Of a stretch of 64,000 bases of DNA, positions 33,203 through 35,994 are shown in pieces. Source of the DNA: Escherichia coli (GTDB lineage: Bacteria > Pseudomonadota > Gammaproteobacteria > Enterobacterales > Enterobacteriaceae); the NCBI RefSeq assembly GCF_013122565.1, contig NZ_CP053258.1. One strand, given 5' to 3'. The notes under the pieces were generated by a model. The model searched no databases. It was not told the origin of the DNA and worked only from the letters and a program-made list of their open reading frames with translations. Within the stretch, counting starts at the first letter, position 1, and the number at the start of each line of letters is the position of its first letter. A program made the position numbers and the translations under genes.

Positions 33203-34410
33203 TGGATATTTTTAATACCTCAATTTCTCGTAAAGGAACATATTGCACACAATGGGACTTTTGTGAAGACAGATTTGGTGTAAAAGATGTATTACCATTC
33301 TCTATTTCAGATATGGATCTTCCGATACCGGAAGCTATCATCAGAACATTAAAAAAACGTCTGGAACACCCGATTTTAGGGTACAGTCGTTGGCAGCATG
33401 ATGACTATCTGAATTCGATAGTCAATTGGTATCATCAACAATATAAAACAGAGATTCAACCAGAATGGATCACCTATAGCCCAAGCGTGATGTATTCAAT
33501 ATCTAAGGCAATAGAAATATTGACATTGAATGGAGATAATATTCTCATTTTCACGCCTGTTTATAACGCATTTTATGATGTGATTAAGCATAATGGTCGA
33601 AACATGCTAACAACCTCTTTGATGAAAGAAAATGGGAGAGGCTACGTTATCAACTGGCAAGACTTTGAGCTTAAAATTAAAAGCGCGAAGATGGTGTTAT
33701 TATGTAATCCTCATAACCCGACAGGAACGGTCTGGTCGGAAGACGATCTTCACAGAATCGCAGCATGCTGTGCAAGGCATAATATTTGGTTATGTTCAGA
33801 TGAAATACATAGTGATTTTGTTTTTAATCATAGTTTCACGTCAGCGCTAACAATAAAAGATGACAAAGTGGTGGTGTTTAATTCGATTTCGAAAACATTT
33901 AATGTTCCTGCGCTAACCGGATCATATATGATTTCAACTGACGATAATTTTAATCATAAGTTCAGAACGATATCGAGGTATCGCGATTTTGTAAACTCCC
34001 CATCAGTACTGAATGTAATTGCGACCATTGTTGCCTATAATGAATGTGAAGAATGGTTAAAGTCATTAAAGGTACATATTGCCTCTAACATTCAATTTAC
34101 CTTGCAGTATTTAAATGAAAATATTCCGGAATTGATCGTATGGCCAGCTGAGGGCTGCTATTTTTCGTGGGTTGATTGCTCGGCCCTTGGTTATCCCTTT
34201 GATAAATTTTACCGTCGATTAATTAACGAAGGGAGAGTAGGTATTATGGCGGGGCATGTTTATGGTACTGAAGGAGAGGGCTATCTGCGTCTTAATCTGG
34301 CCTGCAGTCGAGAAAAATTATATATGGGGCTTGCGCGCCTTGCGAGTGTAATTAAAAATATTAATCAGGAAAAAGAAAATGAACAATACGGATCTTATCC
34401 ATCTTATTAA
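33202..34410 (+). CDS. PLP-dependent C-S lyase / aminotransferase class I-II, MalY/PatB-like
   Basis: N-terminus GTYCTQWDF..DRFG..DVLPFSISDMD closely parallels MalY (GTWCTQWDY..DRFG..LLPFTISDMD); start taken at ATG 33202 (TGATG overlap with the PTS stop, GGGGA 7 nt upstream); alternative ATG at 33196. Confidence 0.78.
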   Translation: MDIFNTSISRKGTYCTQWDFCEDRFGVKDVLPFSISDMDLPIPEAIIRTLKKRLEHPILGYSRWQHDDYLNSIVNWYHQQYKTEIQPEWITYSPSVMYSISKAIEILTLNGDNILIFTPVYNAFYDVIKHNGRNMLTTSLMKENGRGYVINWQDFELKIKSAKMVLLCNPHNPTGTVWSEDDLHRIAACCARHNIWLCSDEIHSDFVFNHSFTSALTIKDDKVVVFNSISKTFNVPALTGSYMISTDDNFNHKFRTISRYRDFVNSPSVLNVIATIVAYNECEEWLKSLKVHIASNIQFTLQYLNENIPELIVWPAEGCYFSWVDCSALGYPFDKFYRRLINEGRVGIMAGHVYGTEGEGYLRLNLACSREKLYMGLARLASVIKNINQEKENEQYGSYPSY

Positions 34411-34975
34411 ACATTTTATGCGTAACGAACATAAAGCAGTAGAAGAGGTTATTGATTCCCCCCTTTCGGAAGTCGCGAATTTAATTAAAATATTACAATC
34501 TTGCCAGGGAAAAGTTGTTTTTATTGGTGTTGGGAAATCTGGCATTATTGCCAGAAAACTTGCTGCAACATTTGCCAGCACCGGAACTCCCTCGTTTTTT
34601 GTTCACGGTACGGAAGCGGTACACGGCGACCTTGGGATGGTGGCGAAAGACGATGTTGTTATTCTTATTTCAAACAGTGGTGAGACGGCGGAAATCCTGG
34701 CGACACTGCCTAGTTTGAAAAAAATGGGTAATTATTTGATCTCTTTTACCCGCAGTCATCACTCATCGCTTGCGATAAGTTGTGATTTATCTGTTGAAAT
34801 CCCCGTCAAAAGTGAGGCGGATAATTTAGGTTTAGCACCGTCATGCTCGTCTACTGTTGTTCTGGTTGTTGGTGATGCGGTGGCGCTTGCACTCTCTGAA
34901 TTGAAAAAATTTACTCGTGCTGATTTCGGCTTATATCATCCAGGAGGTGCACTCGGCATTAAAGCAAATTCATAA
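34379..34975 (+). CDS. SIS-domain sugar-phosphate isomerase (KdsD/GutQ-type SIS without CBS domains; candidate arabinose-5-phosphate isomerase)
   Basis: 198 aa; [42 protein letters not shown] matches the N-terminal SIS domain of arabinose-5-P isomerases; no CBS tail; RBS AGGA upstream; overlaps the upstream gene by 32 nt. Confidence 0.75.
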   Translation: [198 protein letters not shown]

Positions 34976-35046
34976 TTTCAAAGTATAAATACAGTAACCG
35001 GTCACGCCATCTTTTGGGGTGGCGTTCATTGAAGTGAGTGTCAGCT

Positions 35047-35994
35047 ATGAAAAATGTTCTGGTCACCGTCCCCAGCTTTTCAGCACGCTGTGTTTCCGCC
35101 AGCAAGTTGCTAAGAGAGAATAATTTTAACCTTATTATTAAGAATAATGTGGAGCATCTGCTTAAATCAGAATCCACTGCATTACGAGAATCTATTTGCG
35201 CGGTCATCGCCGGAAAAGATTGTTACCAGGCGGACACGCTATCATTGCTGCCTGGTGTGAGAATAATATCGAGATTCGGGACGGGGATAGATAATATTGA
35301 TCTTCGTGCAGCACAACAATCCGGTATTGTAGTCAATAATGCGGTTGGGATTAATTCAAATGCTGTCGCGGAATTTATCATTGGACTTATCTTCGCGAGC
35401 ATGAGAAATATTCCTGGCAGCTATCATGCGATGCAAAATGGCTACTGGGGTGAGTCGCATGGCTATGAATTACAAGGCAAACGGATTGGCCTGGTTGGCT
35501 ACGGCAATATAGGTAAAACCCTGGCAAAAAGGTTATCCGGTTTTGATGTTGAGCTTTTAGCTTATGACAAACAACCCGATTATCAGGTTGCTGACAAAGT
35601 TGGAGTTCAGTTTGTATCAATTGAAGATATCTTTATGCAGTCGCATGTCATCATTGTTCTTTTGCCTTTTTCTCCTGAGCTGGAGAACTTCATTAGTCAT
35701 AAATATTTGTCGATGATGCGCAATGGTGCTCTAATCATCAATGCCGCAAGGGGAAAGTTGCTGGATGAGGGCGCTTTACTACAGGTGATTGAAGAACGAA
35801 ATGTGTTTGCGGCGCTGGATGTGTTTAGCTCTGAACCGTTGGCGCAATTTAGCCCACTGCTACATGCCAAAAATATCATTACAACGCCGCATATTGCGGC
35901 CGCCACCGTTGAGTCATACCAGCAAACCGGTACACACGTTGCCCAGTCGATAATTGATTACTTCGCAGGAAGGGAGATAAAAAACGTGTTGTGA
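35047..35994 (+). CDS. D-isomer-specific 2-hydroxyacid dehydrogenase (NAD-binding)
   Basis: About 315 aa; Rossmann motif GLVGYGNIGKTLAKR; family-typical TTPHIAAAT near the C-terminus; alternative GTG start at 35038. Confidence 0.75.
   Translation: MKNVLVTVPSFSARCVSASKLLRENNFNLIIKNNVEHLLKSESTALRESICAVIAGKDCYQADTLSLLPGVRIISRFGTGIDNIDLRAAQQSGIVVNNAVGINSNAVAEFIIGLIFASMRNIPGSYHAMQNGYWGESHGYELQGKRIGLVGYGNIGKTLAKRLSGFDVELLAYDKQPDYQVADKVGVQFVSIEDIFMQSHVIIVLLPFSPELENFISHKYLSMMRNGALIINAARGKLLDEGALLQVIEERNVFAALDVFSSEPLAQFSPLLHAKNIITTPHIAAATVESYQQTGTHVAQSIIDYFAGREIKNVL

Follow-up and report, generated by a model that had tools for sequence, protein, structure and literature searches.

A free-standing SIS isomerase and a short D-2-hydroxyacid dehydrogenase encoded at the distal end of a five-gene PTS operon in the metV region of Escherichia coli

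The window (the whole stretch of 64,000 nucleotides that was analysed) belongs to an E. coli chromosome and has the gene order recD-argA-amiC, an accessory islet, and tRNA-fMet-mltA. The islet has a GC content of 0.39-0.43, lower than that of its flanks (about 0.52), and stands in place of the 73-nt amiC-metV intergenic region that forms the empty site in K-12. It carries five genes, encoding in this order a LicT-type antiterminator, a MalX-like PTS EIICB, a C-S lyase, a SIS isomerase, and a PGDH-like dehydrogenase. Of 5426 complete E. coli genomes, 1689 (about one third) carry the same five-gene operon. All the features considered here are listed below.

30508..36070, + strand: accessory islet of low GC, about 5.56 kb, with junctions mapped against the K-12 empty site
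30682..30709, + strand: RAT-like antiterminator target CTTGTAACTGTTAAATCAGGCAAGGCAA, read from the sequence; it overlaps the leader terminator hairpin on the 5' arm
30698..30754, + strand: intrinsic terminator of the leader, predicted by RNA folding as a long hairpin with T9 behind it
30766..31590, + strand: LicT/BglG-family transcription antiterminator, 274 aa, equivalent of c3409 (NCBIfam LicT)
31622..33202, + strand: glucose-family, MalX-like PTS EIICB, 526 aa, equivalent of c3408 (TIGR02004)
33202..34410, + strand: PatB/MalY-family PLP-dependent C-S beta-lyase, 402 aa, equivalent of c3407 (TIGR04350)
34379..34975, + strand: SIS-only D-arabinose-5-phosphate isomerase, 198 aa, allele of c3406 (Pfam SIS; identity with CFT073)
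35004..35025, + strand: small hairpin ACGCCA...TGGCGT in the SIS-dehydrogenase spacer, read from the sequence, with no T-run
35047..35994, + strand: NAD-dependent D-2-hydroxyacid dehydrogenase, short and PGDH-like, 315 aa, equivalent of c3405 (Pfam, NCBIfam)
36021..36057, no strand assigned: bidirectional terminator hairpin CCGCAAT...ATTGCGG, read from the sequence
36073..36149, - strand: tRNA-Met (CAU) from the metZWV locus, bounding the islet on the right (ARAGORN; Rfam tRNA, 61.4 bits)

The metZWV tRNAs are annotated as initiator tRNA in K-12, and the end of the operon shares the hairpin at 36021..36057, with an A-run on its 5' side and TTTAT on its 3' side, with the tRNA-fMet gene on the other strand. 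An Rfam scan of the islet returned the tRNA as its only match, with no RAT family match, and a scan with a consensus promoter was uninformative (11 promoter-like sites, against 18 expected). The leader terminator was overlooked by a consensus terminator scan because of its long loop. RNA folding gives it -29.8 kcal/mol (z = -4.6; none of 200 shuffled sequences folded as well), and its stem carries compensatory changes in Atlantibacter (GGCAAGACAACG...TGTTGTCTTGC). The RAT-like element that overlaps it, which we take to resemble the LicT/SacY/BglG RAT consensus, is nearly invariant across CFT073, Escherichia whittamii, Atlantibacter, and Enterobacter. Translation of the antiterminator starts at the ATG at 30766, which has GGAG ahead of it; the ATG at 30709 of the mechanically called ORF falls within the terminator. 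The antiterminator scores 230 bits against NCBIfam LicT, for which the equivalog cut-off is 300, and also stays below the cut-offs for GlcT and BglG; its orthologues have CAT_RBD and PRD domains, and it is named a PRD domain protein in RefSeq. Purifying selection acts on all five genes of the operon (dN/dS 0.04-0.16), inside which a recombination mosaic is seen.

The second gene encodes a transporter with 42% identity to K-12 MalX, which has the EIIB Cys469 within an NCVTRLR motif and is devoid of an EIIA domain. With 538.7 bits against the malX profile TIGR02004 (cut-off 632.2), it is, judged on its sequence, a Glc-family transporter that lies outside the MalX equivalog. The product of the third gene is a predicted lyase, scoring 368.5 bits against TIGR04350, above the cut-off of 340. 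Its best PDB match is 1D2F (MalY), to which it is 37% identical, and its K231 (in SISKTF) aligns to the lysine in MalY SGSKSF, presumably the PLP-binding residue in both proteins.

The fourth gene encodes, as the sequence-only reading had proposed, a 198-aa SIS protein (ORF 34379-34975) with a KdsD/GutQ-type motif of 39 letters at residues 50-88. In the Pfam search, residues 41-170 matched a single SIS domain (PF01380; E 2.1e-26) and nothing matched CBS, and the protein stops 5 residues past HPGGALG, where the linker to the CBS pair starts in KdsD and GutQ; the claim that the tandem CBS domains are missing thus stands. The NCBIfam KdsD profile (NF008141) agrees with this architecture, since the SIS protein matches positions 36-201 of 328, namely the SIS half alone, with 197 bits against an equivalog cut-off of 505. 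Likewise, its 191.9 bits against TIGR00393 (KpsF/GutQ) fall short of the cut-off of 203.7 because just positions 1-152 of the 268 in that profile are matched. The KdsD-type motifs GxGKSG, HGDLG, and HPGGALG are present in the alignment, and K53, H82, E105, E146, and H187, invariant in eight aligned sequences, correspond to K59, H88, E111, E152, and H193 of KdsD, which we take to be the active-site residues described by Gourlay et al. (2010). The spacer that separates the SIS gene from the dehydrogenase gene is just 71 nt long and therefore leaves no room for a hidden CBS remnant.

The SIS gene had also been described as translationally coupled to the lyase gene through a 32-nt overlap. The overlap is real in the window, where the lyase ORF stops at 34410 (overlap 34379-34410), but it is not conserved across alleles. 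In CFT073, a TAA codon ends the lyase 2 nt upstream of the SIS ATG, with no overlap, whereas the Atlantibacter and Enterobacter versions overlap by 8 nt. Accordingly, a conserved 32-nt overlap was rejected, and the last 12-13 residues of the window lyase, which come from reading on into the SIS gene, are specific to this allele. The stated coupling is weakened by this allele-specificity and by the absence of the dehydrogenase gene from the Enterobacter version.

The gene that follows at 35047-35994 does encode an NAD-dependent 2-hydroxyacid dehydrogenase, as had been suggested, with matches to PF02826 (2-Hacid_dh_C, E 1.1e-48) and PF00389 (2-Hacid_dh, E 3.6e-20). Its start is likely the ATG at 35047 (315 aa, in agreement with the annotation of the RefSeq orthologue) rather than the GTG at 35038. 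The protein has GYGNIG at residues 151-156 (GxGxxG), D174, and the triad R235, E263, and H282. Among solved structures, it comes closest to short PGDHs, for example 1WWK, with which G151-G156 and the triad align. A true SerA was rejected, given that the score against the PGDH profile TIGR01327 is far under the cut-off (221 bits against 454, over profile positions 46-309 of 525 only) and that the ACT domain is missing.

The isomerase is already known, as c3406 of uropathogenic E. coli, which has been cloned and assayed and whose structure has been deposited. The window protein shares 194 of 198 residues with the CFT073 protein WP_001066223.1, itself 100% identical to PDB 5UQI/5VHU ("phosphosugar isomerase") and crystallised as a 198-aa protein. 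The four differences of the window allele from CFT073 (R15H, H18L, V32F, and I38V) all lie N-terminal of the catalytic motifs. We equate C_RS16165 with c3406 on the basis of gene order and PDB identity rather than of a table of old locus tags. This identity with a characterised protein had escaped the sequence-only reading. Public sources label the 90% cluster that contains the SIS protein as arabinose-5-phosphate isomerase. The genes c3405-c3410 have been described as part of PAI-CFT073-metV and called a maltose/glucose-type PTS cluster (PMC2831201). A 2011 report gives c3406 as an arabinose-5-phosphate isomerase and its operon as one handling an unknown carbohydrate (Mosberg et al., PMID 21498648). 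The hydroxy-acid or keto-acid route put forward from the sequence restates, conjecturally, this published view. Its pentulose phosphate step is well founded, since an orthologue differing by four residues is cited in the literature as an arabinose-5-phosphate isomerase and has a solved structure. With the operon deleted as a block, Mosberg and colleagues are said to have found in 2011 a link with kidney colonisation.

The operon also occurs outside E. coli. The five-gene order is found in E. whittamii, in Atlantibacter hermannii, and in a distant metagenomic contig (SIS identity 60%), while the Enterobacter version is devoid of the dehydrogenase, leaving PTS-lyase-SIS as the conserved core; the dehydrogenase may thus be peripheral to the pathway. 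Contigs were scanned with exact peptide patterns, which yielded at least 10 loci and under-sample the taxonomic spread of the operon. Among the best 120 homologues listed, the nearest non-enterobacterial SIS relatives (52-60% identity) are SIS-only proteins of Gram-positive bacteria of roughly 197-208 aa, a length found in most of these 120. Their genes adjoin ribokinase-type kinases, DHDPS-type aldolases, and sugar transporters. To our knowledge, these Gram-positives make no Kdo, and such a context fits a catabolic role from arabinose 5-phosphate to ribulose 5-phosphate.

We conclude, with a probability of about 0.9, that 34379-34975 is an allele of c3406 and 35047-35994 one of c3405, both at the distal end of the five-gene accessory "metV" operon of E. 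coli, and that they encode a free-standing arabinose-5-phosphate isomerase and a short PGDH-like dehydrogenase. The domains, the identity with CFT073, the catalytic residues, the operon with its leader, and the purifying selection were computed here; the arabinose-5-phosphate isomerase activity comes from the literature. To what was published, the present analysis adds the conserved RAT/terminator leader, the purifying selection on the five genes, the mosaic structure of the operon, and the allele-specific overlap. In the functioning that we propose, the presence of the PTS substrate would cause antitermination at the RAT/terminator leader and switch the operon on. The EIICB would then import and phosphorylate a glucoside-like compound, probably with an EIIA acting in trans, and the lyase might strip an amino-acid-derived moiety as pyruvate and ammonia. 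The SIS enzyme, equipped with the KdsD catalytic residues and relieved of the CBS regulatory pair, would interconvert D-arabinose 5-phosphate and D-ribulose 5-phosphate, so that the phosphosugar product could pass to ribulose 5-phosphate and the pentose phosphate pathway. The dehydrogenase may act on a 2-keto acid or a 2-hydroxy acid, perhaps in phosphorylated form. An observation that sits uneasily with this scheme is that the product of a Glc-family PTS is normally a hexose 6-phosphate, which nothing in the analysis connects chemically with arabinose 5-phosphate.

A different phosphosugar derived from the PTS import, for instance a hexose or hexulose 6-phosphate derivative, might accordingly be the true substrate of the isomerase, its in vitro arabinose-5-phosphate isomerase activity being ancestral or a side activity. 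This would agree with the hexose 6-phosphates that Glc-family EIICBs usually deliver, with the fact that no enzyme of the operon obviously makes a pentose phosphate, and with the conserved core module, which implies that the SIS enzyme works on the product of the lyase or of the PTS. Nevertheless, we regard it as possible but rather unlikely, considering that every catalytic and substrate-binding residue of KdsD is kept in the SIS protein, that the orthologue c3406 is reported to be an arabinose-5-phosphate isomerase, and that the kinases encoded next to the Gram-positive relatives are pentose kinases of the ribokinase type.

Much less probable is an anabolic back-up function, in which the enzyme would, like KpsF, supply arabinose 5-phosphate for making Kdo, LPS, or capsule, its site in a PTS operon being incidental. 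The reaction is indeed that of KdsD, GutQ, and KpsF, a review that cites c3406 as an arabinose-5-phosphate isomerase places it in LPS precursor supply, and GutQ also closes a PTS operon, that for sorbitol. However, the SIS gene lies behind a RAT/terminator predicted to be substrate-inducible and so would not be constitutively expressed, E. coli already possesses KdsD and GutQ, and the closest SIS relatives among the best 120 listed come from Gram-positives without Kdo. Moreover, in the 2011 work of Mosberg and colleagues, deletion of c3406 alone reportedly left mouse colonisation unimpaired. Finally, although the SIS ORF ends precisely at the SIS/CBS linker and scores under the TIGR00393 cut-off, we reject the idea that it is a decayed KdsD/KpsF pseudogene that lost its CBS half, given its dN/dS of 0.067, a length shared by the majority of the 120 best homologues listed, the crystallisation of its orthologue at the same 198 aa, and the small size of the downstream spacer.

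With the catabolic arabinose-5-phosphate isomerase as the preferred reading, the interest of the locus lies in the natural substrate of a five-gene PTS operon carried by about one third of complete E. coli genomes, and our literature search found no later paper naming it. One speculative proposal, to which we would give only a slim chance, is that the operon provides a glycosidase-free PTS route for a sugar-amino-acid conjugate from host, urine, or diet, of the S- or O-linked glycosyl-cysteine or glycosyl-serine type. The phosphosugar would be released by the PatB-type beta-lyase, not by a phospho-glycosidase, and the isomerase and dehydrogenase would direct the products to the pentose phosphate pathway as well as to 2-oxo-acid metabolism. 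The conserved RAT/terminator leader offers a direct reporter handle for inducer screens.

The closest known system is c3406 in CFT073, a SIS-only protein of the same 198 aa in the same five-gene operon at the same site by amiC. The CFT073 operon lies at the edge of a type VI secretion island, whereas the window strain carries the operon alone. Among the classical arabinose-5-phosphate isomerases, the SIS domains of KdsD and GutQ are 48% and 37% identical to the window protein, with conserved motifs and active-site residues, but KdsD, GutQ, and KpsF have the tandem CBS pair that the window protein lacks. The genes of KdsD and KpsF are found in LPS (yrbG-lptB) and capsule loci, respectively, in contrast with the catabolic-type PTS operon under antitermination of the window; GutQ, for its part, is also encoded in a PTS operon, that for sorbitol. 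Two further solved structures also show SIS proteins that stand alone, with about 200-220 aa: 3ETN, cited as the B. fragilis (Bacteroides fragilis) arabinose-5-phosphate isomerase, and the "SIS domain protein" 3FXA. They are far more distant (E about 1e-30) and have different genomic contexts.

For the proximal genes, malX-malY of K-12 is a paralogous pair that, like the islet, sets a gene for a Glc-family EIICB beside one for a C-S lyase of the PatB/MalY family (at the 42% and 37% identity given above). It is nonetheless controlled by the MalI repressor rather than by a LicT-type antiterminator and is not accompanied by SIS and dehydrogenase genes. We know of no established physiological substrate for malX-malY either. 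In the LicT/SacY/BglG systems, a CAT-PRD gene goes with a RAT overlapping an intrinsic terminator, a layout repeated in the islet with a RAT-like element predicted by sequence, and bglG likewise has its RAT upstream of the antiterminator gene itself. Lastly, the dehydrogenase shares its two Pfam domains, its GxGxxG motif, and its Arg-Glu-His triad with D-3-phosphoglycerate dehydrogenases of the short type (type III), among them that of Pyrococcus horikoshii (1WWK), whereas SerA has an ACT/ASB regulatory region and the window enzyme ends without an ACT domain.

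The ORF at 34379-34975 encodes a 198-aa protein in which Pfam detected a single SIS domain (E 2.1e-26) and no CBS domain. This bears out the sequence-only reading, in which the protein carried a KdsD/GutQ-type motif (residues 50-88) and ended without the tandem CBS domains of canonical arabinose-5-phosphate isomerases (APIs). The NCBIfam KdsD profile aligns solely over its SIS half (positions 36-201 of 328), the KpsF/GutQ subfamily score falls slightly under the cut-off because the CBS half is absent, and the C-terminus lies five residues past HPGGALG, where the CBS linker of K-12 KdsD and GutQ starts in the alignment. 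Residues K53, H82, E105, E146, and H187 match KdsD K59, H88, E111, E152, and H193, which we take to be the active-site residues, and all five are invariant in the window, CFT073, Atlantibacter, and Enterobacter proteins, KdsD, GutQ, and two Gram-positive homologues.

The CFT073 counterpart, c3406 (WP_001066223.1, 100% identical to the PDB 5UQI chain), differs from the window protein only by R15H, H18L, V32F, and I38V; likewise, the 198-aa 'phosphosugar isomerase' of PDB entries 5UQI and 5VHU differs at four positions. Mosberg et al. reportedly found that c3406 carries an API-type SIS domain without the tandem CBS domains and that the recombinant protein has API activity; they are said to have proposed c3405-c3410 as an operon serving the import and utilisation of an unknown carbohydrate, and to have observed impaired mouse kidney colonisation after deletion of the whole block, not of c3406 alone. 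The 90%-identity cluster containing the window and CFT073 proteins is already named 'arabinose-5-phosphate isomerase' in public sources; c3406 has thus been found again, as has c3405 in the case of the dehydrogenase. The window protein belongs with the c3406-type single-domain APIs. The sequence analysed here and the literature together establish that the enzyme is an API made of a SIS domain alone, that its active site is of the KdsD type, that the CBS pair is missing, and that its gene lies in a PTS operon inducible by substrate. In strain KSC207 (99.6% identical over the query), the same five genes are named in RefSeq, in order, PRD-domain antiterminator, PTS EIIC(B), MalY/PatB family protein, KpsF/GutQ family sugar-phosphate isomerase, and phosphoglycerate dehydrogenase. 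The part of Bryant et al. (PMC2831201) dealing with c3405-c3410 assigns them to PAI-CFT073-metV as a maltose/glucose-type PTS cluster, and a review passage on the enzyme of Mosberg et al. gives its reaction as the conversion of ribulose 5-phosphate (Ru5P) to arabinose 5-phosphate (A5P).

The PTS gene encodes an EIICB of the Glc family (42% identity to MalX) with the EIIB cysteine present and no EIIA domain; EIIA must therefore come in trans. The lyase (37% identity to MalY) scores above the PatB C-S lyase cut-off and retains the lysine aligned with the MalY SGSKSF motif. Downstream of the isomerase gene, the expected NAD-dependent 2-hydroxyacid dehydrogenase was indeed found: both D-2-hydroxyacid dehydrogenase Pfam domains, a GxGxxG motif, Asp174, and an Arg235-Glu263-His282 triad place the protein in this family. 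Translation probably begins at ATG 35047, as in the RefSeq annotation of the orthologue, rather than at GTG 35038. The protein most closely resembles short phosphoglycerate dehydrogenases; identification as SerA was rejected, its score being far under the SerA cut-off and no ACT domain being present. The 71-nt spacer between the isomerase and dehydrogenase genes contains a small hairpin without a T-run (ACGCCA-loop-TGGCGT, 35004-35025), which may act in the processing or stability of the mRNA.

By inference, the PTS would import and phosphorylate a glucoside-like compound, from which the PLP lyase would cleave off an amino-acid-derived part; the isomerase would take the phosphosugar product to Ru5P, and the dehydrogenase would act on a 2-oxo or 2-hydroxy acid, perhaps phosphorylated given its likeness to phosphoglycerate dehydrogenase. 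The conversion of an imported phosphosugar through such intermediates, as proposed from sequence alone, is reasonable and poses the same question that the 2011 work left. It is possible, if rather unlikely, that the true substrate of the isomerase is another phosphosugar, which would be compatible with this scheme.

Among the matches listed, the closest non-enterobacterial homologues of the isomerase come from Gram-positives (52-60% identity) which, to our knowledge, make no Kdo. Their SIS-only genes neighbour those for ribokinase-family kinases, whose scores exceed the ribokinase cut-off, for aldolases of the DHDPS and KDPG types, and for transporters (TRAP, MFS, or ascorbate-type PTS).

Gram-positive SIS-only clusters
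L007, 8001-9544
L023, 7013-9517
L022 and L006, 4070-8609

Judged by gene content, these look like catabolic clusters that would yield A5P, with D-arabinose or a 3-deoxy sugar acid resembling Kdo as conceivable starting compounds; no published account of such a Gram-positive pathway was found in the literature searched. Because the nearest relatives occur in Kdo-less Gram-positives beside kinases, aldolases, and sugar transporters, the operon isomerase more likely works in the catabolic direction, from A5P to Ru5P, and a role as anabolic back-up for Kdo synthesis appears improbable.

The idea that the isomerase gene is a truncated pseudogene can be dismissed given the intact active-site residues, a dN/dS of 0.067 between the window and CFT073 alleles, and the best 120 homologues listed, mostly 190-208 aa with a SIS domain only. 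Across all five operon genes, dN/dS is 0.04-0.16. The lyase is the fastest-evolving protein (~85% amino acid identity between window and CFT073 versus 94.5-98% for the other four). Synonymous divergence is mosaic over 30766-35994: dS reaches 0.34-0.49 in the antiterminator, PTS, and lyase genes versus 0.09-0.13 in those for the isomerase and the dehydrogenase, values near that of the core gene amiC (0.09), a pattern that points to recombination with a breakpoint around the lyase/SIS junction. There, the translational coupling proposed from a 32-nt overlap stands only in part. The overlap is real in the window, where the lyase ORF ends at 34410, and recurs in E. coli E69, both having lost the TAA stop that in CFT073 lies 2 nt before the SIS ATG; in Atlantibacter and Enterobacter the overlap is 8 nt. 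Close packing of the two genes is thus conserved, the 32-nt length is not.

The first operon gene encodes a LicT/BglG-type antiterminator, preceded by a leader with candidate regulatory elements.

Candidate RNA elements of the operon
30682-30709, RAT-like element upstream of the antiterminator gene, overlapping the terminator hairpin (sequence reading)
30698-30754, leader terminator hairpin followed by T9 (RNA folding, -29.8 kcal/mol, z -4.6)
36021-36057, operon-end hairpin, candidate terminator for the operon and the converging tRNA gene (sequence reading)

The RAT-like element is near-invariant in CFT073, E. whittamii, Atlantibacter, and Enterobacter, and the terminator stem shows compensatory changes in Atlantibacter; RefSeq lists no such feature for the matching region, and Rfam gave no match to 30682-30754. 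The position of these elements places the antiterminator start at ATG 30766 rather than at the ATG (30709) that opens the mechanical ORF. This conserved leader offers a handle for a reporter-based screen for the operon's substrate.

The window derives from the E. coli chromosome, with recD, argA, amiC, a low-GC stretch, tRNA-Met, mltA, tcdA, csdE, and csdA in order (ORF map and RefSeq matches). GC content drops from ~0.52 to 0.39-0.43 at 30-36 kb, where ~5.56 kb replace the 73-nt amiC-metV intergenic region of K-12, from directly after the amiC stop (30507) to directly 3' of the tRNA gene (36071). Among 5426 complete E. coli genomes, 1689 carry this islet, 261 of them at ≥99% and 1422 at 90-95% identity, and it is not limited to pathogens, since sources include pigs, birds, humans, soil, and carrots.

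The operon elsewhere
Atlantibacter hermannii, all five genes (SIS 85%, dehydrogenase 67% identity), same amiC-mltA site
Escherichia whittamii, all five genes, same gene order
Metagenomic contig L021 (ENA ERZ27336792, 5677 nt, 39.6% GC), all five genes, order unchanged (60% identity for SIS, 47% for the dehydrogenase), the dehydrogenase gene running off the contig
Enterobacter, antiterminator-PTS-lyase-SIS without dehydrogenase, different locus

Since distant five-gene versions exist and the Enterobacter version lacks the dehydrogenase, the SIS-dehydrogenase link is old but dispensable, with PTS-lyase-SIS as the invariant core. The proteins of the metagenomic contig, in the same five-gene order, are 47-75% identical to those of the operon. 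A related low-GC bacterium may have been the donor of the low-GC E. coli islet. In CFT073, the five genes adjoin amiC and border a type VI secretion cluster, located directly beyond the dehydrogenase gene (loci L002/L003, 3229545-3249290). In the window strain, the operon stands without the secretion cluster and is separated from the tRNA gene by 78 nt (35995-36072), so that the two are separable modules of 'PAI-metV'.

At metZWV, the window has a single initiator tRNA-Met (CAU) gene (36073-36149, minus strand), whereas K-12 and the near-identical KSC207 have three tandem copies; this could reflect recombinational collapse of the array or assembly collapse. The mechanical mltA ORF (36037-37455) starts too far upstream and reads across the tRNA gene in reverse complement, which gives the 'GPDLNRRPSGYEPDELPGCSTPR' translation typical of such cases; homology to the annotated 1098-nt gene places the true start at ATG 36358.

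Given their likeness to MalX and MalY, the PTS and lyase form a pair distantly paralogous to K-12 malX-malY, but where that system has the regulator MalI, this operon has a LicT/BglG-type antiterminator as its first gene. The isomerase works like KdsD, GutQ, and KpsF but lacks the CBS domains that characterise them.
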